Position numbers and translations under genes: made by a program. Positions 6,596 through 24,676 of a stretch of DNA of 32,000 nt are shown here, piece after piece. Numbering within the stretch: the stretch's first letter is position 1; every line of letters begins with the position of its first letter. The stretch covers positions 570,681-602,680 of the forward strand of contig NZ_CP021324.1 in the NCBI RefSeq assembly GCF_002156965.1, written 5' to 3'. This stretch comes from Candidatus Nitrosomarinus catalinensis. GTDB lineage: Archaea > Thermoproteota > Nitrososphaeria > Nitrososphaerales > Nitrosopumilaceae. The notes beneath the pieces are model-generated. The model saw nothing but the letters and a program-made list of their open reading frames with translations. It was not told the origin of the DNA and did not search any database.

Positions 6596-6596
6596 A

Positions 6597-6704: not shown

Positions 6705-6705
6705 T

Positions 6706-6875: not shown

Positions 6876-6896
6876 CTTCTTTGATTAAGTGATAAC

Positions 6897-7505: not shown

Positions 7506-7627
7506 TTTAATTCTGATCATATTCACACTGGCCATATTTTTACAAATTGTTTAGTTAGAGAGAAAAGAATTACTGTAGTTGAATGGAATTAGAATTGCTT
7601 AATATTGTAAAATAATTTTATAATTGT

Positions 7628-8475: not shown

Positions 8476-8710
8476 CTGATGTTTGATATTTGCTTAACAC
8501 TTTTGGTTCTCCATTTTCGGAAATTTCTTTAATTATTGACTCCAAAATATTGATGCCTTGTTCAATTGGCTCTTTTTCGTTTATTTTATTTTTCAATTTT
8601 TGCTTTAGTGTCATTTTTTCATTATTGATAAATCGTAACAAACTTACCTCATTTCCCATGTTCAAATTGATAAAAAATTCGACATATTCTTGAGCAGAAC
8701 TAATTACCAT
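8456..8710 (-). CDS. Hypothetical protein (84 aa)
   Basis: ORF upstream of the wHTH gene, overlapping it by 20 nt. The antisense ORF 8490-8693 is judged a shadow. Confidence 0.5.
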   Translation of the reverse strand: MVISSAQEYVEFFINLNMGNEVSLLRFINNEKMTLKQKLKNKINEKEPIEQGINILESIIKEISENGEPKVLSKYQTSDERNHG

Positions 8711-8788
8711 TCCTTATTTTGCTCATTCCTTGTATTTGTTACAATCTTTCCAAATTAGGTTTATTTACTATTTTTAGAAATTTTAACT

Positions 8789-9049
8789 ATGGATTCATGT
8801 GACCGTCGTATTCGTGCCTACAAAAACGGAAAAACAATGGAAGAGTGCAAATCTATTGCCGAATCACTAATTCCTCAATTTAAAGAAAATATCAAAAATA
8901 ATCAGAAAATTCTATGGAGTGAGATTATGGATGTAGTTGATCATGATGAATTAATTTACAAATTATCTTTGAAATACCTTCGACGAGATGGATATGATAT
9001 CGGGAATTATAAAATTCCTGAAGTCAAGGCATTCATCTCTCAAAATTAA
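8789..9049 (+). CDS. Hypothetical protein (86 aa)
   Basis: ORF only. Its 3' end overlaps the convergent membrane-protein gene by 17 nt. Confidence 0.5.
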   Translation: MDSCDRRIRAYKNGKTMEECKSIAESLIPQFKENIKNNQKILWSEIMDVVDHDELIYKLSLKYLRRDGYDIGNYKIPEVKAFISQN

Positions 9050-9857
9050 TTTTACAACTTCCATCAGAATTTCTTAATTTTTTTGCCATTAGATACGGTG
9101 TTACAATTAAAATGGGAATTGAGACCCCAATCAAAAATGTCTGCATTTGTGAAAGCGCTACAGACAACGCAATTCCACTTGCAGTTCCTATGAAAATTGA
9201 TAAAAATGTTCCAGCACATGTTGGACATGCGATAAATAATCCTGTTGCTGCACCAATAGTACTAATCCCTCCCCCTTTCTTTGATATTGAATATGCTGTC
9301 ACTGCGATTGAAACGTTAAGGCCAACTAAATATGAAACAATGATTTGCAGTACCAGATTAATTGGAATAATTTGTAAGCCGATATGTTCTGTTATGTACA
9401 CTATTATTTTTGGCATATATCCTGGCTCATCACAACATGGTGCAATAAATCCTGATGGGACTACTGCCCCATAATGTGTCACAAAATTAATTTCTGGTTG
9501 ATACACTAATGTCCCTGAAATTAACGCAAAAAATATTCCGTATCCAACAAATGTTGATAAAAAGATCTTTCTTGATTTTGAGCTCCAAGTTACCAATGCG
9601 ATAATTGTTGAAAGATCTTTCCCTTTTGTCTCAACTTTTCCTTTATGATATCTAGCAATTCCAATAGCAATTGCACCAAATGCTGCTACCAGTGTAATGT
9701 AAAATCCGAATGCAATTCTTTGTATTGAATCAATTGCACTAGGTGTCATGAGTTCTGGATCCTGGTATCTTCCATACAACACAAACAAGACTCCGATTAT
9801 GACAAATCCTAAAATTATCATTTTTTTACCTTTTTTAATCAGGCTTGACTGTTCCAT
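9033..9857 (-). CDS. Polytopic membrane protein with vicinal CC and an intramembrane CPTC motif
   Basis: It has about 7 hydrophobic segments, with APCCDEPGY (C141, C142) and LFIACPTCAGTFL (C211, C214). The family is not recognised. Confidence 0.75.
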   Translation of the reverse strand: MEQSSLIKKGKKMIILGFVIIGVLFVLYGRYQDPELMTPSAIDSIQRIAFGFYITLVAAFGAIAIGIARYHKGKVETKGKDLSTIIALVTWSSKSRKIFLSTFVGYGIFFALISGTLVYQPEINFVTHYGAVVPSGFIAPCCDEPGYMPKIIVYITEHIGLQIIPINLVLQIIVSYLVGLNVSIAVTAYSISKKGGGISTIGAATGLFIACPTCAGTFLSIFIGTASGIALSVALSQMQTFLIGVSIPILIVTPYLMAKKLRNSDGSCKINFER

Positions 9858-9892
9858 GATGTTTTGATTCTCCTGTGAAATTAAATTCTATC

Positions 9893-11707
9893 TTAACTGA
9901 GTCTGGGGACGAAAATATAGATAATTGCTATAATTTCTAATCTTCCAAAAATCATTAAAAATCCTAATACTATCATTGTAGCTGGATCCGTATCTTTATC
10001 GATTACTCCTGCAGACAATCCACCTGTGGTGATAATTCCAGCTGCTTCAAAAAATGCGTCTTGAAATGGAACATTTTCAATTGCTGAAAGATGTGCTCCT
10101 GTAATGGCTGAAATTGTTGGAAACAATGCTAGAATAATTAATGTGGAAATTATTTCTTTTTTACTTTGATCACTTAGTTTGGATCTTCCAACTTTAGAAA
10201 TAAATGATTTGATATCTTTAAGATGAAATAGTCTGAAAATCTTTAAGCCTCCAGCAGTTGAAAATCCACATCCTCCAATAAACATCAAAATTATTAGAAT
10301 TGAATGAGCTCCTCCACTTAGACCTGCTAAACTTTCCATTTGAAGTCCAGCAGTTGAACTAGCTGATACTGAATAAAATGCACTTTGCATTGGATCTAAT
10401 CCGCTAACTGATGCAAATACTAGTGTAGCACCACCTAAAATTGCAAAATATGCCAGCACTTCTTTTCCTAATTTAGGTGACAAGAATTTTTTTCTAACAA
10501 ATGCATAGTGGAATGTAAATGGTAAAGCTCCTAGTATCATTGCCCCCATCAGTACAATATGTTCTTGCCACAATAGTCCATCCAGAATTGTCGATGTGGG
10601 TGTAAATCCTCCGGTAGACAACGTACTCATCGCCAGAGAAAAATTATCAATGATGTTTCTTTCTCCAAATAAATACAACAAGAATGCAACAATTACGATA
10701 TAAATTGCAAAAATGACTGTAATCGTAAGGAAAAGTTCTTTCATGTGAAGCGTCTTGCCAGAAATAAAACCACGCATAGCTTGTAATTTTGATTCTGGAT
10801 AAAATGCAGTAATTACTAAGTAAATGAAACTCATTCCTCCAACTAATTGTGTATAACTTCTAAAAAATGTGAAACTTTGAGTTAACTTTTCAGGTTCATC
10901 AAATAGTGAAATACCTCCAGTTGTAAATCCTGCTGCACTGGAAAAGAACGCATCTGCAAATACCTGAGTACTTGTTTCTTCAGTTTGAAATACGTACAGA
11001 TACGGTATTGTTCCAAATAATGACAGTAAGAATAAACTTGAAAACACCAGTATTGACGCCTGTTGTAAATTGAGACTTGATTTTTCACCATATGAATTCA
11101 AGAAAAATCCTGTAACAAGCAATAACACTGTAGTTAAGTAAATTCCTGAAGCTGTAACCGTATCTTCAAGTAATGTGGCAACAACTGCTGGAACAAGCAG
11201 CAATACTCCTGCAAATTGTAATACGAATCCCAAGTTTCCTAAAACTGCTTTTACTGGTGGACTCAAAAGTCGAGGTGTAGTTGCTGTTGCATTTCGGATA
11301 ATATTTGCTATGGTAGATTGAAGAATCATTCCAAGAACTTGATTCTTTTTTGAAACAACTGGAAGTTTTCTAACATTGTTGTCTCTCATTATGTGCAATG
11401 CATCTTGTAATGTTGATTTTTCATTAATTGTGATAAGTGGTTTGCTCATTATTTGCTCTAGTGTGGTGGATTCTGCATACACTGTTGCATCACTAACTTT
11501 ACTTAGAATGTCTTCATCTGTAACAATTCCTACTGGAAATTTTTCAGCATTTATTACAACAATGTCATCTGTTTCATAACTACGTAACATGGTAGCTGCT
11601 TCTCTTGTTAGTGTTTTTAGATCCAACATCAAAACATCTTTGTCCATGTATTCTGTCACATTTTTACTTAGGACGTAAGCAACTGCTTTTTCTGGGTTTG
11701 TAGACAT
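9893..11707 (-). CDS. trkH: TrkH/KtrB-family cation (K+) transporter with a fused N-terminal CBS-domain pair
   Basis: The N-terminal ~140 aa show two CBS repeats (PVGIVTDEDILSKV; VLGMILQSTIANIIR). The remainder carries the repeated TrkH selectivity-loop-like strings GFTTGGISL, LSTGGFTP, SSTAGLQ, FSTAGGLK and ITTGGLS. Confidence 0.9.
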   Translation of the reverse strand: MSTNPEKAVAYVLSKNVTEYMDKDVLMLDLKTLTREAATMLRSYETDDIVVINAEKFPVGIVTDEDILSKVSDATVYAESTTLEQIMSKPLITINEKSTLQDALHIMRDNNVRKLPVVSKKNQVLGMILQSTIANIIRNATATTPRLLSPPVKAVLGNLGFVLQFAGVLLLVPAVVATLLEDTVTASGIYLTTVLLLVTGFFLNSYGEKSSLNLQQASILVFSSLFLLSLFGTIPYLYVFQTEETSTQVFADAFFSSAAGFTTGGISLFDEPEKLTQSFTFFRSYTQLVGGMSFIYLVITAFYPESKLQAMRGFISGKTLHMKELFLTITVIFAIYIVIVAFLLYLFGERNIIDNFSLAMSTLSTGGFTPTSTILDGLLWQEHIVLMGAMILGALPFTFHYAFVRKKFLSPKLGKEVLAYFAILGGATLVFASVSGLDPMQSAFYSVSASSTAGLQMESLAGLSGGAHSILIILMFIGGCGFSTAGGLKIFRLFHLKDIKSFISKVGRSKLSDQSKKEIISTLIILALFPTISAITGAHLSAIENVPFQDAFFEAAGIITTGGLSAGVIDKDTDPATMIVLGFLMIFGRLEIIAIIYIFVPRLS

Positions 11708-11802
11708 TAAGCTTCCTTATATCGGGATTTTAAATAATTTGGGGTCGCGTCTAATTAACTAATAATTTGTGATCTATTTTTTGATCCATATTTTTTGCTA
11801 TC

Positions 11803-11812
11803 TTTATAAATA
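11803..11812 (+). promoter_or_regulatory. Putative TATA box for 11840-12265
   Basis: TTTATAAATA lies about 30 nt upstream of the ATG. Confidence 0.35.
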
Positions 11813-11839
11813 ATATCTGCCAACTTTAAGGGTAATACC

Positions 11840-12265
11840 ATGGAAATTGATCAAGCTCCTGATCCTGATTATGATTCTGTAAAAATTAATTATGTGGGCT
11901 TTGTGGATCCTTATGCTTTAGAGGGAATGGTTGTTCTAAAAGCAGACAATGGTAAAGAATTTCACATGCGTGCATTTTCTGGTGAAGTTGCAAAACATAT
12001 CTCAAGTTTTGATGAACCTGAAGGTGAACAATCTCCATCAATATATCGAATGATTGAGGAAATTTGTGAACAAAATGAAATTTCTCTTGTAAAAGTCAAA
12101 ATTTATGAAAGTGGTGATGTTTTACGAGCAAATCTATACTTTACTGGTAAGAAGGATTTAGTTTTGAAAAACCATAGGGCTTCTGATGCAATGGCTTTGG
12201 GTGCATATTATAAAATTCCAATCCTGGTAAGAAAAAAATTATTGAAAGAACAAATGGAAGCATAA
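11840..12265 (+). CDS. Bifunctional-nuclease-domain (DUF151/BFN-like) protein
   Basis: The string NHRASDAMALGAYYKIPILV matches the remembered DUF151 signature (.aRPSDAiALAlr...PI.V). Size and layout fit. Confidence 0.75.
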   Translation: MEIDQAPDPDYDSVKINYVGFVDPYALEGMVVLKADNGKEFHMRAFSGEVAKHISSFDEPEGEQSPSIYRMIEEICEQNEISLVKVKIYESGDVLRANLYFTGKKDLVLKNHRASDAMALGAYYKIPILVRKKLLKEQMEA

Positions 12266-12267
12266 TT

Positions 12268-12286
12268 CCATTCGAATGGTTTTTTT
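12268..12286 (+). terminator. Palindrome plus T7 tract immediately after the stop codon
   Basis: The perfect 12-nt palindrome CCATTCGAATGG (12268-12279) is followed by TTTTTTT (12280-12286). Oligo-T is the archaeal termination signal. Confidence 0.45.
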
Positions 12287-12308
12287 CTTAGTGTTTTGCT
12301 GATAGATT

Positions 12309-12521
12309 ATGAATCAACAAGAAGAATTGATGGATAGTATATTGAATACTGATCTTGAAATAATTGAAACAGTTCGTTCATTACAGAAAGAAAACTGGAA
12401 TGATGAAAGCTTGAAAAACCAGGTAACGGATTTGCTAAAAATCCATGATGAAACAATTACCAAACTAAGATCTCTTCAAAGTGATGATCATGGTTGTGAT
12501 TGTGGTCATGACCACTCTTAA
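12309..12521 (+). CDS. Hypothetical protein (70 aa) with a Cys/His/Asp-rich C-terminal tail
   Basis: ORF. The C-terminus DDHGCDCGHDHS looks like a metal-binding tail. Confidence 0.55.
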   Translation: MNQQEELMDSILNTDLEIIETVRSLQKENWNDESLKNQVTDLLKIHDETITKLRSLQSDDHGCDCGHDHS

Positions 12522-12684
12522 TTATTTTTAAAAACGCTTCATAATTCGGCAATGCTCATCATTTTATCAGTATAGCTTAGAGAGTTTGATTAATCATCAG
12601 CATCCATGATAGACTAATGTGATGTATATTGCTATTGAATGAATAAACAGAAGCTTTTTGAAATGAAATAATTCCTATTATGAT

Positions 12685-12933
12685 ATGACAAATTTTGAAA
12701 AAATTTATGCTAAAGTGGCATTAAAAATAATCAAGCGTTGTCATGGTGCTATTAAAATTACAAAACATGGTAAAATTGTTGAAGTTTATGATGTAAAACG
12801 TCATATCTGGAGTGACGGACTTGCAGGTTTGATAATTAAAGAAGAATGTCGTCTGGCAAATTTGAAGGAATGGGAGTTTGCAAATGTCCGAGGTTATGTG
12901 ATCAAGGAATTACTGTCAAAATCTGACAATTGA
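12685..12933 (+). CDS. Hypothetical protein (82 aa)
   Basis: ORF only. Confidence 0.5.
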   Translation: MTNFEKIYAKVALKIIKRCHGAIKITKHGKIVEVYDVKRHIWSDGLAGLIIKEECRLANLKEWEFANVRGYVIKELLSKSDN

Positions 12934-12938
12934 TTTCA

Positions 12939-13235
12939 TCACCCATTTTTTACTTTAAACAATTCCCATTCTTGATTGATTTTTGTTGAATGTTCTTTAA
13001 CAAATCTTTTTCCTTCGTCTTTCAAAATTATTGAAGGGTTTGTATTTCTTGTAAACCAATTATCACTTTTATCTATTGTAATCAAATTGACATCTTCTAA
13101 TTTATTTACATGATCTCTGAATTTTGCAGCGTTTGTTTTTTTGCAGTTTTTGAAAATGCTGGTATATTTTGTTACACCTTGTGTAATTGATGCCAAAATT
13201 AAGTAGTCAACTGAATCAAACGAATTTGAATCCAT
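12939..13235 (-). CDS. Small putative winged-helix protein (98 aa)
   Basis: The string YLILASITQGVTKYTSIF...FRDHVNKLEDVNLITID has a wHTH-like pattern. It is the second gene of a two-gene minus-strand operon. Confidence 0.6.
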   Translation of the reverse strand: MDSNSFDSVDYLILASITQGVTKYTSIFKNCKKTNAAKFRDHVNKLEDVNLITIDKSDNWFTRNTNPSIILKDEGKRFVKEHSTKINQEWELFKVKNG

Positions 13236-13247
13236 CCAAATTTAATT

Positions 13248-13523
13248 TCACATAAGATGATTAAAAGTTGATACTTGTCGGATTAGGTGTGGTTCTTTTA
13301 GCAAAATTGTATCGTCTTTAGTTGATGATAATTCTGGTTTGATTATTTTGTCTGTTGTAATCACAATCAATGCTTCACATCTTGTACATAGTATTGTTCT
13401 TCCTGATGATCTGTCCTCTCTGATCAGACCTGACTCTAATCTATCGGGTTTTTCACATGTTGGACATAATCTTGGTTCTTTTTCTATGCTGATAATCTCT
13501 TTAATGAATATCATTTTCGACAT
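13248..13523 (-). CDS. Small zinc-ribbon protein (91 aa)
   Basis: CPTC...(20 aa)...CTRC forms a four-Cys ribbon. It is the first gene of the operon divergent from the giant gene. Confidence 0.6.
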   Translation of the reverse strand: MSKMIFIKEIISIEKEPRLCPTCEKPDRLESGLIREDRSSGRTILCTRCEALIVITTDKIIKPELSSTKDDTILLKEPHLIRQVSTFNHLM

Positions 13524-13583
13524 ATCTTTTCCTCATTTTGTGTACAGAATAATGTTTGTAATGTTAATTGGTATCAGCAATCC

Positions 13584-13618
13584 ATTTCAGATGTCAAACC
13601 GTTTTAATCATCTGAAAT
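13584..13618. promoter_or_regulatory. Perfect 10-bp inverted repeat in the divergent control region (candidate operator)
   Basis: ATTTCAGATG (13584-13593) and CATCTGAAAT (13609-13618) are separated by a 15-nt spacer. They lie between the divergent starts at 13523 and 13859. Confidence 0.35.
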
Positions 13619-13858
13619 TAGAATGAAAGGTATTCAACATATTCCCCTATCTAACCAATTAACTAGGAGTATCTTTTCCGTTCTAACATAAGATGTTATC
13701 CCTATCATTGACTTTTTGTGCCTAGAATCACTAATAATAATTTCTTATTTTCATAATTCACTGTTAGATTGGAAATGGAGTTCCATGTTATGAGGATTAG
13801 AATGGTTGTTAATTCCTGCTCTAAATCCTTATGTAAATTAAATTCATGAGATTCTGTT

Positions 13859-16800
13859 ATGGGTTTGTTTGGAAGGAAAAAGACAGATAAAGAAAAAGAA
13901 GAGGACCAAAAAATGAAGATTAAGAAAAGACCATTCAAAGAGGCTAGAGAGTTTGTTCACAAATTAAAATTAAAAAATAGTTTAGAATGGAGAGAATATG
14001 CTAAATCAGGAGAAAAACCTGATGACATTCCATCAGACCCTCGTTCTTACAAAACAGAATGGAAGGGAATGGGAGATTGGTTGGGAAATGGGAATATCCA
14101 TCCAAAGTACTGGTATTCTGAAGACCACTACATGCAATTCAAAGAAGCCAGGGAATTAGTTAGCAAAAAGAAATTCAAATCAAACAAAGAATACAGAAAA
14201 TGGGTAAGAAGTGGTAAAGCACCCAAAGGACTACCAATAAATCCAGATAGTGAAAGACAATGGAAAGAGAATTGGACAAATTGGCCTGATTTTTTAGGAA
14301 AGGGATATGTGTCATACCAAGAAGCAAAAAAACTCGTCAAACAACTAAATTGTGAAACTGAAGCAGATTGGGAACGAATTTCTAAAGATTTTAAAATCAA
14401 AAACAAACTACCGATTAGCACAAGAACATATTATACAAAATTGGGAATGTGGACAAATTGGCCTGATTTTTTAGGGAAAGAAACCAAAAAAAATACTCCA
14501 AAAACTGCAACATTCAAAGAATGTCAAGATTTTGCTATACAAAACGGAATTGGTGATTTAACCCAATGGCATAATTGGTATAAAAATGGAAAATTACCTT
14601 TGAATTTTCCTAGTAATTTAGATCAATATTTCAGAAAGACGAAACAATGGAAAAATGCTGATCATTTCTTTAATAGAAAACCAAAAAAATTTCTTCCTTT
14701 TGAACAACAATTAGTAATTGCACAAAAATATTGTAAAAAAAATCACATTACAAAAAAAGAAGAATGGTTTGAACATTTTCAAACAAATCCATTGCCTGAA
14801 GGACTACATAAGGCACCTAATCGAATAAAATTATCAAAAAATCAGAAATTTAGGTGGCATGTTTGGTTAGGAATAGATGAAAACGATCCATTAATGAGAA
14901 ACAGTAAATCAATTTATGCATCATACAAACAACATCAAAAATTCGCCATACAAAATAACATAACAACAGGGGGACAATGGCACAAATTCATGGAAAAAAA
15001 TAAAGATAAAATTCCATTAAATATTTCACTACATCCAGATTCATATTTTATTAAAAAGGGATTATGGCCAAAAAATGGCTGGTATGGATTCCTAAATCAA
15101 GAAGAAAACCCATGGTGTACTTATGAAGATGCAAAAAAATATCTCAAACCATTTAATCTTGTTTCAAAACGAGATTACAAAAAATGGTTATCACAAAACA
15201 AAACTATCAAAATAAATGGCAAAAAATTACCTAATGCACCTGAATCTGTTTATTCAAAACAAAGTGTTTGGATAGATTGGTTTGATTTTCTAGGTAGAGA
15301 AGATCTACGAATGACATTAGAAAATACAAAAAAACTTGTCAAGGCACTCATAGACAGTAAAATTATTCATCAAGCAAATCCAGAGGATCAAGTAGTTTTT
15401 GCAAAATTATTAATGATCAATGAAATTTATGGTCGTAACAATACAAAAAGTAGTAAATTTCTAAAACAACTACAAAGTGCTTCTCTATCCCCATCAGGTT
15501 TAAAAAAAATAATACGTTACGCAGAATCTGATTCATTAGAATTACCTGACATTTCAAAAGATGTAACGATTGATCCTGAACAATTATCTGAAGAGAGAAA
15601 AATTGTAAACAAAAATCAAAGTGTTTCAGAAAAAGATGATGGTCTATTAACGGATTATTCTCCTCAACCTACAAAAGATATTCTTAAATTTACAGATATT
15701 GAAAAATCTTTACTAATTTCTATTGACGAAGAATCAATGAAATTTTTTGTAACATTTCTTGTTCACAAGTTATGGAATAGAGCATTTCTAAAAGAAGAAG
15801 AGACAGTATCGGATGTAAAAGGAGAAGGTAAAACTGGTAATGATTTTCATGATAAAGTAATTACAACATTTCTCGATGAATACAAGGGAACAAAGGAATT
15901 AAAAATTCCTAAAGGATATGCATTTCCACATGAACCATACCTTATGCAACGATATGTTGCATACAAGGCTACAAGTGTAAAATCTCGATACTTTGCAAAT
16001 ACATCTGAGCCTGGAGCAGGAAAAACACTTTCTGCAATACTGGCTTCAAGAGTAATGAATGCAAAAACAACACTAGTCCTATGTCCAAAGAATGTGATTG
16101 AACAATGGGGAGATAAAATAAAAGAAATTTTTCCCGATTCTGAAGTAATTATACGGAATAAAGTATTTTCAATTTCAAAATCTGCAAAAAATCCTAGATA
16201 TTTGATTATAAATTATGATATATTCAATCAACAAACATCAGGCAAAAAAATTTCCATATTTAAAAAAATAAAAATTGATTTTGTCATTATGGATGAAATT
16301 CAATTTGCAAAGGCTCCATTAAAAAAGAATATTGATGAAGAGACATCTCGATCAAGACGATTACATTTGGAAAATTCGTTAAAATACATTAAAGAAAATA
16401 ATCCTAAATCAAGAAGACTGGGACTTTCTGCAACTCCAATAATTAATACCTTGAAAGAAGGACGCTCACTTTTAGAATTACTATCAGGTAGAAACCACAA
16501 TCATGTAAAAACAGATGATAGGTTTTTCTTTAACGGAGTAGGAATGTATGAACAGTTAACCAATATATCCATACGTCAAAGAAATGGTCAAAATTTTAAA
16601 ATTGAAAAACATCCTTCAGTAATTGTAGATGCTCCAATCTCATCACCATTTTCAGAATTAGAACAAAATCCACTACTCATAGAACTTGAATTGACAGATG
16701 CAAGAATTTCTGAAATAATTAAAAAAATTGAAGGTCAAACCATCATCTATACAGAATATGTTGGTAAGGGAAAAATAGATTCCAATATTGTGAAAAAACT

Positions 16801-17920
16801 AACAACCGCATTAGATGATAAGCAAATCACGTGGGGGCTGTATACTGGAACAAGAAAATATGAACTGGAAGACTTTTCACCTAAAAATAAATTTCAAGTT
16901 TTAATCTGCTCCAGTCCAATTTCAGTAGGTGTTGACGGACTACAACTGTCATGTAATCGAATAATTTTCAACTCACTTCCATGGACACATGCTCAATATG
17001 AGCAAATTATAGGCAGAATTGCACGAAAAGGACAGACAAAACCGATAGATGTTTTTCATATTAATGCCAGAATTCCAGTAACCAAGAAGGGAAGAACACA
17101 TTATATCGAATATGATCAAGGAAAATTAAATCTAATTAAAAGAAAACAGACTCTAGCAGATTGTGCTGTTGATGGAATTCTACCTCGAGATAATAAAATA
17201 ATTACAAAAACAAGAGCAATGAAAGAAGTTGTAAAATGGTATAAGAGATTAGAAAACGAAGATTATTCTTTTGTATTTGTTGAAGAGCTTGATGTTCCAG
17301 AAATTGTTGAAAGAGAGCCAACTGTAAGAAAACTGGGCAGATTAGAAGAGATGCATAAGCAGGTGTTTCATGTACATTCCAAAAAAGTTCATGAAATGCT
17401 AAAAGAAGATCCGCAATGGGTAATAGAGTATCACAATGAATATCGTAAATCTCGACAAACGTGGGATGTTATTCCTTATGAGTACTACATTAAGAAATTG
17501 AATGAAATGTCTCCTAGGTTAAAGATAGGAGATTTTGGATGTGGTGAAGCAAAAATCCGAGAGTCACTTGGAGACGATAGGGTCAAAAGCATTGATCATG
17601 TTGCAATAGAATATCAAGACATTGCAAAAACAAAAAACATCATCTCGTGTGATATGGTAGATGTATCCGAATACATCAAAGATGGCGCATTGGATGTTGC
17701 AGTATTTTCACTTTCTATGTGGGGCAATAATTGGAAGTCTTACTTTAAAGAGGCAAACAGATGTTTGGCTAAAAATGGCTTCTTGTTTGTATGTGAAACA
17801 ACTGCCAAAATGAATTCGTGGTTAAAGGGATTGGATGATACTCTCAAAGAAGAGGGTTTTGATGTACACTCCAAAATAAAAATTGAACAGTTCACTTTCA
17901 TTGAAGCACGTAAAATCTAA
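13859..17920 (+). CDS. Giant multidomain protein: 7 Trp-rich tandem repeats + SNF2-family ATPase + Rrp8-like SAM-dependent methyltransferase
   Basis: This is an uninterrupted 1353-codon ORF. SNF2 motifs present: EPGAGKT, LVLCPKNVIEQW, VIMDEIQ, LGLSATPIINTLKEGRSLLELL, IIFNSLPWTHAQYEQIIGRIARKGQ. Methyltransferase motifs present: IGDFGCGEAKI and LDVAVFSLSMWGNNW..EANRCLAKNGFLFVCE. The exact start is uncertain, because Met19 at 13913 is an alternative. Confidence 0.9.
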   Translation: MGLFGRKKTDKEKEEDQKMKIKKRPFKEAREFVHKLKLKNSLEWREYAKSGEKPDDIPSDPRSYKTEWKGMGDWLGNGNIHPKYWYSEDHYMQFKEARELVSKKKFKSNKEYRKWVRSGKAPKGLPINPDSERQWKENWTNWPDFLGKGYVSYQEAKKLVKQLNCETEADWERISKDFKIKNKLPISTRTYYTKLGMWTNWPDFLGKETKKNTPKTATFKECQDFAIQNGIGDLTQWHNWYKNGKLPLNFPSNLDQYFRKTKQWKNADHFFNRKPKKFLPFEQQLVIAQKYCKKNHITKKEEWFEHFQTNPLPEGLHKAPNRIKLSKNQKFRWHVWLGIDENDPLMRNSKSIYASYKQHQKFAIQNNITTGGQWHKFMEKNKDKIPLNISLHPDSYFIKKGLWPKNGWYGFLNQEENPWCTYEDAKKYLKPFNLVSKRDYKKWLSQNKTIKINGKKLPNAPESVYSKQSVWIDWFDFLGREDLRMTLENTKKLVKALIDSKIIHQANPEDQVVFAKLLMINEIYGRNNTKSSKFLKQLQSASLSPSGLKKIIRYAESDSLELPDISKDVTIDPEQLSEERKIVNKNQSVSEKDDGLLTDYSPQPTKDILKFTDIEKSLLISIDEESMKFFVTFLVHKLWNRAFLKEEETVSDVKGEGKTGNDFHDKVITTFLDEYKGTKELKIPKGYAFPHEPYLMQRYVAYKATSVKSRYFANTSEPGAGKTLSAILASRVMNAKTTLVLCPKNVIEQWGDKIKEIFPDSEVIIRNKVFSISKSAKNPRYLIINYDIFNQQTSGKKISIFKKIKIDFVIMDEIQFAKAPLKKNIDEETSRSRRLHLENSLKYIKENNPKSRRLGLSATPIINTLKEGRSLLELLSGRNHNHVKTDDRFFFNGVGMYEQLTNISIRQRNGQNFKIEKHPSVIVDAPISSPFSELEQNPLLIELELTDARISEIIKKIEGQTIIYTEYVGKGKIDSNIVKKLTTALDDKQITWGLYTGTRKYELEDFSPKNKFQVLICSSPISVGVDGLQLSCNRIIFNSLPWTHAQYEQIIGRIARKGQTKPIDVFHINARIPVTKKGRTHYIEYDQGKLNLIKRKQTLADCAVDGILPRDNKIITKTRAMKEVVKWYKRLENEDYSFVFVEELDVPEIVEREPTVRKLGRLEEMHKQVFHVHSKKVHEMLKEDPQWVIEYHNEYRKSRQTWDVIPYEYYIKKLNEMSPRLKIGDFGCGEAKIRESLGDDRVKSIDHVAIEYQDIAKTKNIISCDMVDVSEYIKDGALDVAVFSLSMWGNNWKSYFKEANRCLAKNGFLFVCETTAKMNSWLKGLDDTLKEEGFDVHSKIKIEQFTFIEARKI
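13928..15298 (+). repeat. Seven tandem coding repeats (~58-70 aa each) ending in a W-x-x-W-x-D-F-L-G type motif
   Basis: Units start near aa 24, 91, 150, 217, 278, 353 and 419. An identical 26-nt DNA block, TGGACAAATTGGCCTGATTTTTTAGG, occurs at 14273-14298 and 14450-14475, which is 177 nt apart. Confidence 0.8.
15926..17158 (+). other. SNF2/Swi2-type SF2 ATPase core (domain of the giant ORF)
   Basis: Walker A is at 16007-16027 and DEIQ at 16292-16303. LSATP lies within aa 855-859 (nt 16421-16435), and the Q..GR..R.GQ motif is at 17003-17035. Confidence 0.8.
17411..17917 (+). other. Rrp8-like (Methyltransf_8-like) class I SAM methyltransferase domain of the giant ORF
   Basis: Motif I, IGDFGCGEA, is at 17525-17551. 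The pre-motif YHNEYRKSRQTWDVIPYEYYIKKL and post-motif DVAVFSLSMWGNN / EANRCLAKNGFLFVCE match remembered Rrp8 strings. Confidence 0.65.
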
Positions 17921-18339
17921 AAAAACTCACTCTGCCCTAGAGTCCTTATGAAATGGGGAATGCTCATGTTTAAAACCAGAAATAATTCTCAAAAAACAGC
18001 TTGATCAATTGGTAAATATCAGAAATACACAACATAATGTATGAAAATGACTGATAGTCTATCGGTTAGCAGTCAGATTAAGAAAAAAATTTGCTTTACT
18101 GTGATCATATTTTAAATTGTTAAATTATTTTTTAGAACAGGAATAAGATCTTAAACTCACCAATTAACAATTTGTTGTATTTTTTATTGAAAATATATTT
18201 TTCTTAATATTATTTTATTTGATATAGTTATAATTTTGAATATTTAGAAAATATATTGAAATTATTACATAAAAATCTTAAATACTTATACATTGTATGA
18301 AATATGATGTCGTTAGTTCTAAAAACTAATGAATAAAGT

Positions 18340-18432
18340 GCGTAGCCCCGCAGAACGAAAAAGGCACTCAGGCGTTTGACGCTTGACCACAAGAGGAAAT
18401 CTCTTATTGTTCTGCAATTAAGCGGGCTTCGC
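18340..18432 (+). ncRNA. Candidate structured RNA of unknown class (three-way junction)
   Basis: This is a GC-rich island in very AT-rich spacer. The closing stem pairs 18340-18356 with 18409-18432. Hairpin A is TCAGGCG-TTTGA-CGCTTGA (18368-18386), with one G-U that is only valid on the + strand. Hairpin B is AAGAG-GAAAT-CTCTT (18391-18405). Confidence 0.4.
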
Positions 18433-18513
18433 CATTTAATTTCCTATTTGATCTGTTCATGCAAATTTTTTACCTAAACATATTAGAAATCCAATACCAT
18501 CCATGTTAGTACG

Positions 18514-19077
18514 ATGGTAATGATTCATGATGATTACATTTTATTTTGTACTTCTCAGTGGGTTGAACTAAAAGACATAATTGAAAGATGTGGTGGTAAT
18601 GAATCTGAAGTAGTTGAATCTATTCAAAGACTAGCCTATATGGGATTTCTTGAATCTAGAACTTTAAAAAATAATTTATTTTATAAAAAACTTGATACGC
18701 CTCAAACTCATGATCAATTTTCATCAATGATGGATAATTTCTTAGAATACCAAAAATTTGAAATTGACCTGATAAAAAAGATTCCAACTATAATGTTCAG
18801 TGATGGTGGTCGATTTGGTTTTAGTAAAGATGGATTAAAATTGCTTGAACATATTCAAGAAGAAATTAATAGAATAACTATGGTAATTTCTAAAATTGAT
18901 CATTTTGATAAAATTAGACTTTTGCAGCATCCAATAGCACAACAAAGAATCAAACGATTACAAAATCACATTAATCGAATAATGGACACAATGTTGGATT
19001 CTTACAAGGATGTTCGTTCTAATGTTGCACTTCAAGAATATTTTAAAACACATACAGGAAAATTAAACACTGTTTGA
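18514..19077 (+). CDS. Putative winged-helix protein with a helical C-terminal domain (187 aa)
   Basis: The string VELKDIIERCGGNESEVVESIQRLAYMGFLESR is wHTH-like. It is the third member of the ~190-aa architecture seen at 2235 and 7897. Confidence 0.65.
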   Translation: MVMIHDDYILFCTSQWVELKDIIERCGGNESEVVESIQRLAYMGFLESRTLKNNLFYKKLDTPQTHDQFSSMMDNFLEYQKFEIDLIKKIPTIMFSDGGRFGFSKDGLKLLEHIQEEINRITMVISKIDHFDKIRLLQHPIAQQRIKRLQNHINRIMDTMLDSYKDVRSNVALQEYFKTHTGKLNTV

Positions 19078-19081
19078 ATAG

Positions 19082-20194
19082 TTATGTAACTATCTCATCA
19101 AGACGATCTTCTTCTTGAGCTCTTTTAATTTCCATTGCAATTCTTCGTCCGACTCCAAATGTTTGACCATACTGGTATTTTGTATATGGGCTAGTTGTTG
19201 CAACTATGGGGTTTCCTGGAACTCTTAATGAAACATCATAAACAATTAATTCTAAATCTTTAGTAATGACACTTTGAAGTGAAAATGGACCAATTATGCC
19301 TGGAGCATATTCTTTTTTTACTGCTGAGACAAACTTGTCTCCCATTTTTAGAACTTTTTCAAGCAAAGATTCTCTAATACTTGCTGGAGTATGGCCTACC
19401 TCAATATTTTGTAAATCAATATCCATCTCCAATTGCTCTTTTGCTGGTAATGCATTATAGTCATGAATGTTTGTTTGAAGTCTTCTTTCGATTCCAATGA
19501 AGTCAACTTGATTTGAAATAGGTGTGTGAAAGAAATTAAAATTCATGTAAGTTCCAATTGCTAATTCTTCTATACTTGCTTTTTCTAAATCCTTTTTTGC
19601 AATAACTCCTTGTTTGATTTTCTGTTCTGATTTTTCTTTGTAATCTTTGTATGATGATACCGTAAAAAATGCTCTTTCTAAAGGTCTATTTTTTTCTTGA
19701 ACCTTTACTATGGATGGTTTGTTGATTCTTTTTGGGTCTTTGAATAATTTTGGATATTTGATTCTGGCTTTTTCTAAAAGATAGTATTGTCCTTTTTTAG
19801 CAGTTCTTTCTTCAGCTTGAAATAATTTCCTATTTCCAAAAATTGGAACTTTGAATTTATCTTCAATTGTTTTGTAACCCAGATAAACTGTGAGAGACCT
19901 GTGTGGAACAACAATTGTGTTTGAATCTCTTAACATTTTTTGATTTTTAGCTGATGCCATGTCTTTGAATTTATCTAATACTACTATTTGGTCTGCAATT
20001 CTGTTGAATCTTTGATAAGGTCCTTCTCTACCTTTTTGGCAAAAAACAGTTGTTTCAAAATTTTCATCCTTTGCTCCGTCCATTACTTCTAAAGCAGAAT
20101 GACTTCCTAGTACTCCTATTTTTACATCTGAATAATCATTAACTATTTTCTTGATCTCAGAACTTTTGATCATATTATGCCTAAATATTGGCAT
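19082..20194 (-). CDS. purP: 5-formaminoimidazole-4-carboxamide ribonucleotide (FAICAR) synthetase, archaeal PurP (ATP-grasp)
   Basis: The N-terminus IGVLGSHSALEVMDGAKDENFETTVFCQKGRE..YQRF matches the remembered PurP signature. The ~370-aa length fits. Confidence 0.92.
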   Translation of the reverse strand: MPIFRHNMIKSSEIKKIVNDYSDVKIGVLGSHSALEVMDGAKDENFETTVFCQKGREGPYQRFNRIADQIVVLDKFKDMASAKNQKMLRDSNTIVVPHRSLTVYLGYKTIEDKFKVPIFGNRKLFQAEERTAKKGQYYLLEKARIKYPKLFKDPKRINKPSIVKVQEKNRPLERAFFTVSSYKDYKEKSEQKIKQGVIAKKDLEKASIEELAIGTYMNFNFFHTPISNQVDFIGIERRLQTNIHDYNALPAKEQLEMDIDLQNIEVGHTPASIRESLLEKVLKMGDKFVSAVKKEYAPGIIGPFSLQSVITKDLELIVYDVSLRVPGNPIVATTSPYTKYQYGQTFGVGRRIAMEIKRAQEEDRLDEIVT

Positions 20195-20272
20195 CTAATA
20201 TATGTAAAATTACAATATATCAGATCGGAATATACCAAAATGTTTTTTTTAAATGCCAGTTTAAAAAAAACT

Positions 20273-20434
20273 ATGTTTTATTCATTTGAACTTCAAATGG
20301 CAGGTGTAATTTTACTAACTGCAATGGCTGTTTGTGGTGTTTCATTATGGATTAAACGAAGAAAATTAGAAAAGGAATCTGTTGAACAAGAATCTGCTGA
20401 ATCCATTGAACAAGATATATCTGAAAACAAGTGA
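20273..20434 (+). CDS. Small single-pass membrane protein with an acidic tail; start uncertain
   Basis: The listed ORF start (20177) would overlap the purP start codon region. The hydrophobic helix AGVILLTAMAVCGVSLWI follows Met codons at 20273 and 20297. A hairpin lies downstream at 20458-20474. Confidence 0.4.
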   Translation: MFYSFELQMAGVILLTAMAVCGVSLWIKRRKLEKESVEQESAESIEQDISENK

Positions 20435-20718
20435 TATGATTTAAAAATTATTTTTGAAAGAAGCTAGGCTTCTTCTTGTTTACAATTAATACACATCTTT
20501 TTTGATAAAATTTCAAACCATGCGAAATTATGGACATAACCTTTCTTACAACTCATAGGAATAATCTCTATGAAGAAAATATTCAAGGTAAAGGGTCAAA
20601 TCTAATATCGATCTAAGCCAAATCATAATTTGTTTTATGTATTATTTACTTTCAATTTGCACACCTTGTCAAAGAATTCCTATTTGCAATTCTATTTTTT
20701 AGAATTTATTGCATAGTA

Positions 20719-20728
20719 TTTTAAATAA
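20719..20728 (+). promoter_or_regulatory. Putative TATA box for the PQQ-type dehydrogenase gene
   Basis: TTTTAAATAA is centred about 24 nt upstream of the GTG start at 20747. Confidence 0.35.
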
Positions 20729-20746
20729 AAAAACTTTCATGTAATT

Positions 20747-21922
20747 GTGAGATTTTTATTTTTACTTTTTTCTATTTGCATTTTTTCAATGATGTTGCCT
20801 GCATTTGGCGATTTGAATTCTGACGTAATAGTGGATGGACTCAATAATCCTTGGGAAATAGTATTTGGACCTAATGGAGATATTTACTTTACAGAAAGAG
20901 ATGGTCGTATCTGGAAAATGAGTGAATCTGGAGTTGCAAAAGTTATCCAAACCTTCCCCAAGAGTGGTTCTGTTGAGGGTGGCACATTGGGTCTTGCATT
21001 ACATCCTGACTTTGAAGAAAATAACAAAATTTACGTATATCAAACAAATTTAGAGCTTGAATTTTATCAAAACAAAGTTTTTAGTTTTGAAGTTGATGAT
21101 GACACTCTTTCTAACAAACAGTTGATTCTTGATGGTATACCTGGTGCCCCATGGCATGATGGTGGGAGAATAAAGTTTGGTCCAGATGAAAAATTGTATA
21201 TTTCAACTGGTGATGCAATTAATCCTGGCTGGTCCCAAGATTTATCTTCTCTTGCTGGAAAAATTTTGAGAATTAATTCTGATGGAACTATTCCTGATGA
21301 TAACCCATTTGATTCAAGTCCTATCTTCTCTTATGGTCATCGCAATCCCCAAGGACTAGCGTGGTCTGCAGACGGACTTTTTCTTTCATCCGAACATGGT
21401 CCTTCAGGAGAACTTGGTTATGGGCATGATGAGATAAATCTGATTTTAAAAGGTAAAAATTATGGGTGGCCAAATATAGTTGGAAATTCGCCGGATGATT
21501 CTTTTGTTAATCCTATAATTCACAGTGGTGAGTCCACTTGGGCTCCTAGTGGAATGGTTTTTTTTGATTCTGAAAAAATTTCTGATTTTACTGGAAAATT
21601 TTTAGTTGGAACACTTCGAGGTGAGCATCTAATGGTGATGGATATTGCAAACGATGGTTCTATAATTAGTTCAGAAAAAATGTTTGATGGAGAATTTGGT
21701 AGAATTAGAACTGCTCAAATGAGTCCTGATGGAAATTTGTATCTTCTTACTGCCAATGGAAATAATGATAAGATAATTCGTATCTCAGAAACCCCTCTTG
21801 AGGATGTAAAAAAATTCACATCAAAAGAATCCGCTGATGATTTTGCAACATTGTATGTTGTAATTGGTATTGTGGGTATTGGGATAATTTTGGGCTTAGT
21901 AATAGTTAAGCGTAAATCCTGA
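20747..21922 (+). CDS. PQQ-dependent sugar (glucose/sorbosone) dehydrogenase-like beta-propeller with a signal peptide and C-terminal TM anchor
   Basis: It has the GHRNPQGLAW signature, HDGGRI.FGPD, GDA..P, and the NYGWP string. The hydrophobic N-terminus and the C-terminal LYVVIGIVGIGIILGLVIV are also present. Confidence 0.9.
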   Translation: MRFLFLLFSICIFSMMLPAFGDLNSDVIVDGLNNPWEIVFGPNGDIYFTERDGRIWKMSESGVAKVIQTFPKSGSVEGGTLGLALHPDFEENNKIYVYQTNLELEFYQNKVFSFEVDDDTLSNKQLILDGIPGAPWHDGGRIKFGPDEKLYISTGDAINPGWSQDLSSLAGKILRINSDGTIPDDNPFDSSPIFSYGHRNPQGLAWSADGLFLSSEHGPSGELGYGHDEINLILKGKNYGWPNIVGNSPDDSFVNPIIHSGESTWAPSGMVFFDSEKISDFTGKFLVGTLRGEHLMVMDIANDGSIISSEKMFDGEFGRIRTAQMSPDGNLYLLTANGNNDKIIRISETPLEDVKKFTSKESADDFATLYVVIGIVGIGIILGLVIVKRKS

Positions 21923-22059
21923 TTTCAAACAAAAATCATGCTTTTTATCTGATAATTATTCCTTTTAGGTTGGAGGCAACGGAAAATGCAACAAACCATC
22001 TTCATAACAAATCCCCTTGATGAGTCTATTCTAAATACTACTATTTTCCATATTGATTC

Positions 22060-22617
22060 ATGAAATTAATAATTGGAATTACTGGTAGCACTGGAGTAAT
22101 CTACGGAATTAGAATGCTTGAAGTTTTAAAAAAATTAAATGTTGAAACACATCTGGTTATGTCTGAGTGGGGGGAAAAATGCATCTCAATGGAAACTGAA
22201 TATACTCCTGAATATGTAAAATCTCTTGCTGCCAGCGATTCAGATGAGAAAAATATGGCTGCAAGTGTATCTAGTGGAACTCATAGAATTAATGGCATGA
22301 TAGTTGCTCCTTGTAGTATGAAGACATTAGCAGCAATTGCTAATGGTTATGATGATACATTAGTTGCAAGAGCTGCTGGTGTGACAATTAAAGAAGATAG
22401 AAAATTAATTTTAATGGTTAGAGAAACTCCAATGTCTGCAATTCATTTAGAAAACATGCTAAAATTATCCAGACTGGGTGTAATAATTTTGCCACCTGTA
22501 ACTGAATTTTATACTAAACCAAAAACCATTGATGATATTGTAAACCATGGAGTAGGAAAATGTCTTGATCAGTTTGACATTGATCATGATTTATACCCTC
22601 GATGGGGAAGTTTCTAA
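22060..22617 (+). CDS. ubiX: Flavin prenyltransferase UbiX
   Basis: Matching strings are MKLIIGITGSTG.IYGIRMLEVL, APCSMKTLAAIANGY.D.L..RAA and L.L..RETP....HLENM. Confidence 0.93.
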   Translation: MKLIIGITGSTGVIYGIRMLEVLKKLNVETHLVMSEWGEKCISMETEYTPEYVKSLAASDSDEKNMAASVSSGTHRINGMIVAPCSMKTLAAIANGYDDTLVARAAGVTIKEDRKLILMVRETPMSAIHLENMLKLSRLGVIILPPVTEFYTKPKTIDDIVNHGVGKCLDQFDIDHDLYPRWGSF

Positions 22618-23059
22618 AATACTGTTGACCACATTTTCTTTAGAAAAAATTATTCATGCTAAACGAAAAAATGTTTTTGAGATTTTCTCCAATTATGAAC
22701 AATATGAAAAATTAATCCCTGCATATTTTCCATCTATCCGTATTCGTTCAGTACGTGGAGAGACTGCAGTTGTTGAGGAACATTTCACATTAGGTGACAT
22801 TGAATTTCTTTTAATGTCCAAACATGTCTCAAAACCGTTTGTTTTACATGAAGTTTTTGTTATTGGTGGAAAATCTAAAGGTAGTTACATTCGACAGGAG
22901 TTTATTGAAATTCCTGACGGAACTAAAATTTTAGTTGATGTGGATTTAAAATTGATGGGAGCAATGAAAATTCCAAAATTATTGGATAAATCGAAACTAA
23001 TTGCCAATTATTCAAAATTACTAGATGATATGACTATTTTATGTGAAAAATCAGTCTGA
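22586..23059 (+). CDS. SRPBCC/START-like (COQ10/polyketide-cyclase-type) protein; start uncertain
   Basis: The pattern ...VFEIFSNYEQYEKLIPAYFPSIRIRSVRGETAVVEEHF... is typical of SRPBCC N-termini. The listed ATG 22565 and ATG 22586 both overlap ubiX. TTG 22625 is an alternative start. Confidence 0.6.
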   Translation: MIYTLDGEVSKILLTTFSLEKIIHAKRKNVFEIFSNYEQYEKLIPAYFPSIRIRSVRGETAVVEEHFTLGDIEFLLMSKHVSKPFVLHEVFVIGGKSKGSYIRQEFIEIPDGTKILVDVDLKLMGAMKIPKLLDKSKLIANYSKLLDDMTILCEKSV

Positions 23060-23257
23060 TTTTACTTCTTTATCTTTAGGAGATTCGTCAATTTTTCCTT
23101 TGAAATCTTCTAGTTCCTTATCTCCTTCAATTTTTCCTTTTTCAAATTCGCCTTTGGCCTTACCAAATGTTTTAGCAAGTTCTGGGATTTTTTTAGCACC
23201 AAAAATTAGTACGCCTATTACCACAACTAAAACTATGATTTCGGTACTTCCAAGCAT
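23051..23257 (-). CDS. tatA: Twin-arginine translocase subunit TatA/E
   Basis: MLGSTEIIVLVVVIGVLIFGAKKIPELAKTFGKAKGEFEKG is the canonical TatA TM plus amphipathic helix. Confidence 0.9.
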   Translation of the reverse strand: MLGSTEIIVLVVVIGVLIFGAKKIPELAKTFGKAKGEFEKGKIEGDKELEDFKGKIDESPKDKEVKSD

Positions 23258-23284
23258 TATAACCCTACTTCTTAGATTTCAGAT

Positions 23285-24076: not shown

Positions 24077-24129
24077 CCAATTTCATTTTGTGCTATGATG
24101 TATGAAAATGTATATTTTTTAAAAAAGAC

Positions 24130-24600: not shown

Positions 24601-24676
24601 ATATGATATGTTGAAATATTCTGGTATAACTATCTAACCCTAAAATTGCTATCTAGAAATGTAAATTACTAGCCTG

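Follow-up and report, generated by a model that had tools for sequence, protein, structure and literature searches.

An Snf2 ATPase joined to an Rrp8-like methyltransferase and a tandem repeat array, encoded by a strain-variable insertion in Candidatus Nitrosomarinus catalinensis

In this study we analysed a stretch of 32,000 nucleotides (nt) from the archaeon Candidatus Nitrosomarinus catalinensis (contig NZ_CP021324.1, positions 570,681 to 602,680), called the window below. It holds a gene whose 1353-residue product combines an N-terminal array of tandem Trp-rich repeats, a Swi2/Snf2-type ATPase and a C-terminal methyltransferase of the Rrp8 type, and which is the only gene of a 4,495-bp insertion missing from five closely related contigs. 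Judged from its sequence, the protein belongs to a widespread family that moves horizontally, has so far not been characterised and carries these parts on a single polypeptide. We propose, with a probability of about 0.5, that it is a self-contained and mobile methyltransferase that tracks along DNA and is deployed where mobile elements and their hosts are in conflict. The features of the gene and of the insertion, in window coordinates, are as follows (AF2, AlphaFold2; SAM, S-adenosylmethionine).

13859..17920, + strand: open reading frame (ORF) of 1353 residues, array plus Snf2 ATPase plus Rrp8-like methyltransferase (translation)
13934..15301, + strand: seven tandem Trp-rich units of INT_rpt type, residues 26-481 (family consensus unit)
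15302..15958, + strand: family-specific helical region, residues 482-700 (family conservation, AF2)
15959..17158, + strand: Swi2/Snf2-type ATPase core, residues 701-1100 (Pfam, Foldseek)
17159..17338, + strand: conserved bridge between ATPase and methyltransferase, residues 1101-1160 (alignment, AF2)
17339..17917, + strand: class I SAM methyltransferase of Rrp8/NML type, residues 1161-1353 (Pfam PF05148, PDB)
13664..18158, no strand: strain-specific insertion of 4,495 bp with the 1353-residue ORF as sole gene (BLASTN against relatives)
13654..13663, no strand: left 10-bp direct repeat ACCAATTAAC, target-site duplication or att core (sequence)
18159..18168, no strand: right 10-bp direct repeat ACCAATTAAC (sequence)
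13671..13686, + strand: left arm of an imperfect terminal inverted repeat, ATCTTTTCCGTTCTAA (end comparison)
18132..18149, - strand: right arm of the imperfect terminal inverted repeat, reverse complement ATCTTATTCCTGTTCTAA (end comparison)

Domain composition of the protein

A first-pass annotation, made from the sequence alone, had described one uninterrupted ORF, by far the largest of the window, and had divided its product into a repeat array, an SNF2-type ATPase and an Rrp8-like methyltransferase. The ORF does run through 1353 codons without interruption, and the next longest encodes 721 residues. The three domain calls, including the Snf2 class and the specific preference for Rrp8/nucleomethylin (NML), are upheld by profile, sequence and predicted fold, and all the motif strings quoted at the time are found in the translation. 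Met19 (position 13913, MKIKKRPF...) aligns with the first residue of the closest homologue (P0001 on contig L173), and position 13913 may be the true start codon.

By sequence, the C-terminal domain is a member of the Rrp8/NML family PF05148. It matches Methyltransf_8 over residues 1161-1352 (E 7e-32; 111-116 bits, 116 when scored alone, against a cutoff of 27), and the next methyltransferase family, Methyltransf_11, scores 18-21 bits, which bears out the preference for Rrp8 over a generic methyltransferase. The motifs of the domain are DFGCG (1225-1229), D1246, CDM (1264-1266) and FSLSMWG (1283-1289). Its sole sequence relative in the PDB is 2ZFU, human nucleomethylin/RRP8 (E 3e-17 with the single sequence, 2.5e-47 with the family profile), on which Foldseek superposes the predicted domain with a template modelling score of 0.80 and a root-mean-square deviation of 1.8-2.0 Å. 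An exhaustive HMMER search of 1.84 billion representatives retrieved 1,839 relatives of the methyltransferase, the best 150 of which include animal and holozoan proteins 32-37% identical to it, named at source ribosomal RNA-processing protein 8 or 25S rRNA (adenine645-N1)-methyltransferase-like. When aligned with eight animal or holozoan Rrp8 proteins, the domain conserves YH, W, P, D.GCG, the D of motif II, CD, L.LMG and E..R, and it has the Rrp8-specific N-terminal extension (YH..YR..W..P).

The ATPase exceeds the Pfam cutoffs of SNF2-rel_dom (residues 717-882, 38-41 bits, cutoff 24.9), Helicase_C (residues 950-1058, 37-40 bits, cutoff 23.5) and ResIII (residues 717-861). Its motifs are GAGKT (719-723), DEIQ (812-815), SATP (857-860) and Q1049/R1053/R1056; they are intact, and an activity stimulated by double-stranded DNA (dsDNA) is predicted. 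PDB matches found by sequence only are weak (SSO1653, vaccinia NPH-I, XPB and Fft3), and the best 43 Foldseek matches in the PDB are all Swi2/Snf2 remodelers (E 1e-16 to 1e-13), among them Ino80, Chd1, ISWI, SMARCAD1, Mot1, CSB and Rad54. A fold search of BFVD returned only generic Snf2 helicases of phages and giant viruses. The predicted structure, a two-lobe RecA-like core that has helical insertions of Snf2 type and Snf2 motors as its closest structures, places the motor in the Swi2/Snf2 class. Motors of the Snf2 fold are dsDNA translocases. The catalytic residues of the ATPase and of the methyltransferase do not vary in either of two alignments, with 27 and with 44 sequences.

For the N-terminal part, seven tandem units of 58-70 residues had been proposed at residues 24-480. 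A search with the family consensus unit confirmed seven units within residues 26-481 (26-78, 94-149, 153-208, 219-271, 286-340, 356-413 and 422-481), with domain E values from 2e-24 to 0.047 (six units significant, unit 6 borderline), and they can probably be assigned to a repeat that Pfam already knows. The window protein itself gives no match to PF14882 even at E <= 1; homologues 35-40% identical to it, which align unit for unit, match PF14882 INT_rpt ("integrase repeat unit") at E 8e-24, and some of them bear the NCBI name "integrase repeat-containing protein". From this alignment the array is probably a divergent INT_rpt array of PF14882 type. Trp makes up 5.0% of residues 1-481 and 1.15% of the remainder. 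No tandem repeat is present in the array at the DNA level, which indicates that the units are old and divergent. AF2 models the array, separately from the rest, as a string of small all-helical beads (predicted local distance difference test, pLDDT, 81). Foldseek found no significant PDB match for this model (best E 0.27), and the family profile matched no PDB sequence over the array region. The array is presumed to be the part that binds nucleic acid or confers specificity.

Between the array and the ATPase, residues 482-700 are kept across the family in alignments, are predicted to be helical and have no match in a Pfam scan. The AF2 model of residues 481-1353 (pLDDT 78) begins here with a weakly predicted part, passes through a disordered stretch and continues into a well-predicted helical extension packed before lobe 1 of the ATPase (model residues 125-225, pLDDT 78-95). 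A match to phrog_62, "DNA helicase", spans residues 585-875 (E 3e-36). The bridge that follows the ATPase (residues 1101-1160) has D1105, G1106, P1109, W1127 and R1130 invariant in the 27-sequence alignment, and is modelled as helices followed by a low-confidence linker. The first-pass annotation had seen no N6-adenine or C5 DNA-methylase motif, and indeed (D/N/S)PP(Y/F/W), PCQ and ENV are all absent from the 1353 residues. The Pfam scan of the whole protein found neither a nuclease domain nor a recombinase domain.

Comparison with P0001 shows purifying selection on the gene, with the array as its fastest-evolving part. The array is 66% identical between the two proteins (dN, the nonsynonymous divergence, 0.25; omega, the dN/dS ratio, 0.40), whereas Snf2 and methyltransferase are 92-93% identical with dN of 0.03-0.04. 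Omega is 0.08-0.26 in the enzyme parts, and 0.10-0.15 in Snf2 and methyltransferase.

The insertion and the family of its gene

The gene is accessory and mobile. In BLASTN, window positions 1-13663 and 18156-26213 match adjacent positions of contig L169 at 99.6-99.7%, the two flank alignments overlapping by 13 nt at the 10-bp repeat, and the same junction is found in L166, L170, L171 and L172. These five contigs lack the insertion and are about 99.3-99.7% identical to the window flanks; their empty site, ...CTATCTAACCAATTAACAATTTG..., has a single copy of ACCAATTAAC. Identical TrkH and/or PurP are encoded by five independent contigs without the large ORF, and the relatives keep the gene order PurP / 187 aa / 91 aa / 98 aa / 82 aa / 70 aa / BFN / TrkH (sizes in amino acids, aa). 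To the question of whether the gene is core or variable, the answer is thus that it is variable.

A terminal inverted repeat at the ends of the insert is probable from the sequence. The two arms of ATCTT(-/A)TTCC(-/T)GTTCTAA agree at 16 of 18 positions, with two gaps of 1 nt, and score 24. Random pairs of 32-mers drawn from the window score 11.2 +/- 2.6, which gives an empirical p of about 0.001 for the terminal 32 nt; the repeat is not significant when ends of 120 nt are compared. Elsewhere in about 175 loci the motif is absent, and scans of JGI metagenomes with the protein and with the left insert end found no second copy of the element. The GC content of the gene (0.315) equals that of the host (0.313), with similar values at third codon positions, and the donor was probably a related archaeon, given this shared base composition.

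On L166, identity is 99.4% left of the insertion site, and only 94.1% to the right (18156-20622) and 80% at 21934-22508; on the evidence of this contig the population appears to have a breakpoint of recombination or divergence at the insertion site. The context of P0001 on L173 differs from that of the window, DNA similarity stopping 67 nt past the stop codon. Upstream of P0001, a 204-residue INT_rpt ORF shares 4 nt with the start of the gene, and downstream (4903-5978) there are a 224-residue ORF and an ORF with a weak HNH match.

An exact look-up of the window protein found no record. The closest homologue, P0001, comes from an independent assembly and is 83% identical over the full length and 93% in the core. 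A search with the full protein gave 275 matches, and one with the core (residues 481-1353) gave 381 clusters at E <= 1e-10. The best 120 metagenome core matches are 41-45% identical, with one at 93%, and many of them are labelled Nitrosopumilus, Nitrosarchaeum or Nitrosotenuis. The metagenome proteins come in two forms, of about 880 residues (core only) and about 1,100-1,350 residues (INT_rpt plus core). The first-pass annotation had asked how far the architecture spreads and whether its modules ever occur as separate adjacent genes; they do, the array being a separate ORF immediately upstream of the core in L005, L007, L160 and L161. In species-representative genomes, relatives are encoded at no fewer than 206 loci, in a patchy distribution over at least 15 phyla. 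Archaeal carriers are Nitrososphaeria and Thermoplasmata, and bacterial carriers include Cyanobacteria, Chlamydiae, Dependentiae, Planctomycetes, Verrucomicrobia, Myxococcota, Chloroflexi, Acidobacteriota, Gemmatimonadota and others. The core is also present on about 35 IMG/VR contigs, many of them 100-400 kb long, and on three plasmids, one of Crinalium and two of Rhodococcus, where it is annotated as "zinc-ribbon domain-containing protein". A homologue in pSID lies next to FtsK/SpoIIIE and near SSB.

The fusion had been put forward as undescribed. Searches of the literature on PF14882/INT_rpt, DUF4379, PF05148/Methyltransf_8 and Rrp8 with helicase or Snf2 found no functional description of the architecture, which a survey of the thaumarchaeal mobilome leaves unmentioned, and database labels are only generic (helicase, integrase-repeat protein, zinc-ribbon protein). 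It is nevertheless not unique, given the large family just outlined.

Across this family the sequences indicate a constant core of Snf2 and methyltransferase and an N-terminal array that can be swapped. In the majority of bacterial members and in many viral ones, the place of INT_rpt is taken by 3-9 treble-clef zinc fingers of DUF4379. INT_rpt arrays are also found in bacteria on proteins with an Mrr_cat_2 nuclease and a helicase, and DUF4379 arrays are fused to putative restriction endonucleases of Marseilleviridae (PMC5513546). A 2179-residue ORF in a metagenome-assembled genome of Myxococcales (L073, 5217-11756) consists of MmeI_N, MmeI_hel, MmeI_Mtase, three DUF4379, Snf2 and Methyltransf_8, so that one chain contains both a type IIL restriction-modification (R-M) module and the Rrp8-like module; another member is fused to Sigma70_r4. 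Methyltransf_8 also follows other superfamily 2 (SF2) helicases unrelated to this Snf2 core, a helicase bearing three HA domains, and other Trp-rich arrays that lack a helicase (P0285, P0304, P0336, P0392, P0265, P0271 and P0297). In a rough neighbour-joining tree, eukaryotic Rrp8 forms one clade nested among Snf2-fused sequences, which is only a hint as to the origins of Rrp8.

Some individual loci deserve mention. The closely related IMG/VR contigs L098-L114 (26-350 kb, mostly 160-350 kb) have a gene of DUF4379/DUF723, Snf2 and methyltransferase in conserved synteny with thymidylate synthase and primase, and PHROG scans of the flanks on large viral contigs found only thymidylate synthase, primase and endonuclease VII. 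In Nitrosopumilus sp. AH-558-J19 (L002, 9207-13424), about 4 kb of consecutive INT_rpt ORFs, probably one giant or frameshifted array, precede an 874-residue core, and a further INT_rpt ORF lies downstream of it (16960-18516).

No partner gene is conserved around the family. All-against-all clustering of ORFs from 117 loci found none, save for the synteny within the one viral contig group, and a Pfam scan of 149 immediate neighbours found no recurring family, only scattered transposases, integrases, restriction genes and zinc-finger arrays. In Nitrosarchaeum, the gene stands in an island between eRF1/HIT and IlvD that begins with a Phage_integrase and carries DUF5131 and SHOCT after the gene; a second thaumarchaeal homologue lies in an ORFan island ending at an integrase adjoining TruB. 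In Nitrosopumilus bin_6a (L160, 3773-22652), an 883-residue core follows two INT_rpt-only ORFs, in a cluster resembling a defence island (Mrr_cat, a Csa3-like protein, PIN, UvrD+PDDEXK, SWI2_SNF2, AAA_23 and N6_N4_Mtase).

In the window, the neighbours are ordinary archaeal chromosome genes (aEF-2, TrkH/CBS, PurP, GSDH, TatC and PurQ/L/F), and the rest are ORFans. This agrees with the earlier observation that no R-M or defence partner genes are nearby, the only matches to defence families coming from a generic helicase C-lobe. The region 2000-9000 looks like an island, with low GC (0.26-0.29) and many short ORFs without Pfam matches, but it is kept at 99.7% in the relatives and is not strain-specific. 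A 391-residue generic class I methyltransferase (24677-25852; weak matches to Methyltransf_11/12/25) between TatC and PurS is kept by the relatives and has no connection with the gene of the insertion.

Proposed function and its alternatives

That DNA is the track, what is methylated and that the enzyme serves in conflict are what we infer from these findings. The fast-evolving array would bind nucleic acid, most likely dsDNA, and set where or on what the enzyme engages; the Snf2 motor would spend ATP to track along or distort duplex DNA; and the tethered methyltransferase would modify a target exposed by the motor, most likely a nucleobase. The protein would act alone, with no need of a partner gene, when mobile elements and hosts come into conflict, either by placing a protective mark on the DNA that carries its gene or by marking or disabling foreign DNA. 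We favour DNA because of the Snf2 fold, because relatives are fused to Mrr and restriction nucleases, the MmeI module and Sigma70_r4, and because the gene is found on plasmids and, in pSID, beside FtsK/SpoIIIE and near SSB. Methylase-Snf2 dyads, of which P1 DarB is one (PMC5512222), are a precedent that argues in the same direction, and the swapping between INT_rpt and DUF4379 arrays also points to DNA. A stand-alone function is suggested because no neighbour family is conserved across loci. The second candidate role in the first-pass annotation, a mobile-element or defence function, fits the strain-specific 4.5-kb insertion and the homologues in integrase-bounded or defence-like islands and on plasmids.

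Several points weigh against this proposal, and the type of methylase is its main weakness. To our knowledge, all characterised relatives of the Rrp8 type methylate N1 of an rRNA adenine, and we know of no DNA methyltransferase in the family. N1-methyladenine in DNA is normally a lesion, and would be odd as a protective mark. Neither a nuclease partner nor a mechanism of discrimination is evident. None of the cultured-phage records has the core, no integrase or transposase lies near the gene in the window, and the insert encodes no recombinase. PADLOC and NCBIfam models gave only partial helicase matches, mostly to the C-lobe (E 1e-8 to 1e-5). DUF4379 proteins have been reported in complexes of kinetoplastid mitoribosome assembly, which means that the arrays could bind RNA. 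Finally, an insertion is formally indistinguishable from loss of the segment in the relatives by deletion between the 10-bp repeats; we favour insertion because the gene is rare and its homologues behave as mobile.

A serious rival, if on balance an unlikely one, is that the protein writes on RNA. It would keep the ancestral N1-methyladenosine chemistry on rRNA or nascent RNA, while Snf2 and the array tether it to transcribed DNA or RNA polymerase, like RapA, NPH-I or CSB, or remodel a ribonucleoprotein, and the carrier would benefit, for example through resistance to ribosome-targeting toxins or takeover of translation. The identity of 32-37% with animal Rrp8, including the N-terminal extension and all motifs, supports such a role, as do the vaccinia NPH-I match, the best PDB profile match of the ATPase N-lobe and a transcription-coupled ATPase, the presence of RapA among the NCBIfam matches, the occurrence of DUF4379 proteins in mitoribosome assembly intermediates and the fusion of Methyltransf_8 to other SF2 helicases. 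However, the Snf2 fold is that of dsDNA translocases and only remodelers head the Foldseek matches, DNA is indicated by the arrays and by the fusions to accessory domains (Mrr nuclease, MmeI module, Sigma70_r4), and an rRNA modification is expected more often to be fixed than to vary between strains.

It is less probable, and in our view doubtful, that the protein is a remodeler that displaces DNA-bound proteins (nucleoid proteins, restriction complexes or RNA polymerase) and whose Rrp8/NML-like domain methylates a protein or senses SAM. A role as SAM-binding sensor has been proposed for NML in eNoSC, and the Snf2 fold, the structural match to NML, the lack of DNA-methylase motifs and the autonomy of the single gene all speak for the remodeler reading. 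Yet even very distant members strictly keep the SAM-binding motifs and the presumed catalytic ones, under strong purifying selection, which argues for real catalysis, and we know of no protein methyltransferase in PF05148 that could serve as precedent.

The proposal of a DNA-tracking methyltransferase also has a bolder form, which we regard as improbable: the members would be programmable single-chain modification enzymes, in which the array encodes specificity and the Rrp8-type domain writes a non-canonical methylation on DNA bases, and the prokaryotic and viral radiation would be the source pool of eukaryotic Rrp8/NML. If so, both mark and mechanism would be unlike those of any known R-M, BREX or DISARM methylase.

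A host housekeeping role, as an archaeal regulator of chromatin, rDNA or rRNA that couples remodelling to methylation, was the other candidate of the first-pass annotation and is very unlikely. It could draw on the domain analogy to eukaryotic Snf2 remodelers and Rrp8/NML, and on a base composition indistinguishable from that of the host. It is hard to reconcile with the absence of the gene from five contigs 99.3-99.7% identical in the flanks and otherwise identical in synteny. The exact protein is without a database record, only a handful of Nitrososphaeria species representatives have a homologue, in differing contexts, and the family is patchy across domains, including plasmids and viral contigs. 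That the ORF is an assembly chimera, as had been considered, or a decaying functionless pseudogene is hardly credible given the clean junctions with direct repeats, the full-length homologue in an independent assembly, the Snf2-methyltransferase join in more than 100 independent contigs (about 30 of them also with an N-terminal INT_rpt array), the uninterrupted ORF with all catalytic motifs, and an omega well below 1.

From a broader perspective, Rrp8/NML has been treated as a eukaryotic family of rRNA and rDNA chromatin, and it has a large prokaryotic, plasmid and viral radiation in which an SF2/Snf2 motor and a tandem array of binding modules almost always accompany the Rrp8-like domain. Such a radiation points to nucleic-acid modification as a so far unrecognised activity where mobile elements and hosts are in conflict, and bears on the origin of the nucleolar enzyme. 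The window and its relatives, which differ locally by the insertion of a single gene, form a natural test pair whose methylomes, RNA modification maps and susceptibility to viruses and plasmids can be compared. The swappable, fast-evolving arrays are candidate modular specificity domains and might be of interest for engineering.

Comparison with known systems

Eukaryotic Rrp8/NML (2ZFU) has the YH..YR, DFGCG, CDM and LSLMG motifs in common with the window methyltransferase. The latter, however, is placed behind an Snf2 ATPase and a repeat array, proteins of its kind are encoded by prokaryotes, plasmids and viral contigs, and its gene is accessory and mobile, whereas Rrp8 is a universal, stand-alone nucleolar protein with a basic N-terminal region. 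The context of motif II is consistently SFDH in the window family and SFDL in Rrp8. The whole protein as an Rrp8 orthologue is ruled out by the fusion to Snf2 and array and by the strain-variable gene. The Snf2 and array context suggests that the target of the window methyltransferase may differ from N1 of a specific adenine in large-subunit rRNA.

The Swi2/Snf2 ATPases (Ino80, ISWI, Chd1, Mot1, CSB, Rad54, SSO1653, RapA and phage Snf2 helicases) have the GxGKT, DExx and (S/T)ATPxxN motifs in common with the window motor, whose predicted fold matches remodeler motors at E 1e-16. In contrast to them, the window protein, only 13-18% identical, has no chromatin-reader domains and adds a family-specific N-terminal helical domain and a C-terminal methyltransferase.

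Among defence systems, the ATPase is weakly similar to DISARM DrmD, BREX BrxHI/HII, Zorya ZorD, Hma HmaA and Dpd DpdE, for instance with 36 bits to DrmD against a family cutoff of 610. The defining partner genes of these systems are absent around the window gene and none of them recurs across loci, and membership in DISARM, BREX, Zorya, Hma or Dpd is ruled out by the absence of partners and by helicase matches that are partial and below cutoff. A type I, III or IIL R-M enzyme is likewise ruled out, as the protein has no N6, N4 or C5 motifs and no nuclease match in Pfam. The earlier statement that it fits no known R-M or defence architecture therefore stands: no helicase model is matched over its full length, and both partners and motifs are lacking. 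Set beside a transposon or insertion sequence, the insert has a clear 10-bp direct repeat and a terminal inverted repeat that is only probable, and encodes no transposase or integrase of its own.

The proteins with an Mrr_cat_2 nuclease, an SF2 helicase and INT_rpt, and the Marseilleviridae proteins with DUF4379 and an endonuclease, carry the same kinds of tandem array on a nucleic-acid enzyme. Their effector is a nuclease, whereas that of the window protein is a methyltransferase, and the helicase of the Mrr_cat_2 proteins is not homologous to the window Snf2 core, only the array region aligning (34% coverage).

Dyads of the DarB type, in which a DNA adenine methylase is joined to Swi2/Snf2 (for example P1 DarB), occur in phages, plasmids and conjugative elements, in a survey that makes no mention of Rrp8 (PMC5512222). 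The window protein is ruled out as a member, having no (D/N)PP(Y/F/W) motif, a methylase of PF05148 and the reverse domain order. The methylase of the dyads is an N6-adenine DNA methyltransferase, whereas that of the window protein is of the Rrp8 type, without a DPPY motif and C-terminal, and the window family adds N-terminal INT_rpt or DUF4379 arrays. Both have a methyltransferase and an Snf2 motor in one polypeptide, are carried by mobile elements and have no nuclease partner. By analogy, a methylase-Snf2 dyad carried by a mobile element would be the known system closest in its working to the protein of the window.

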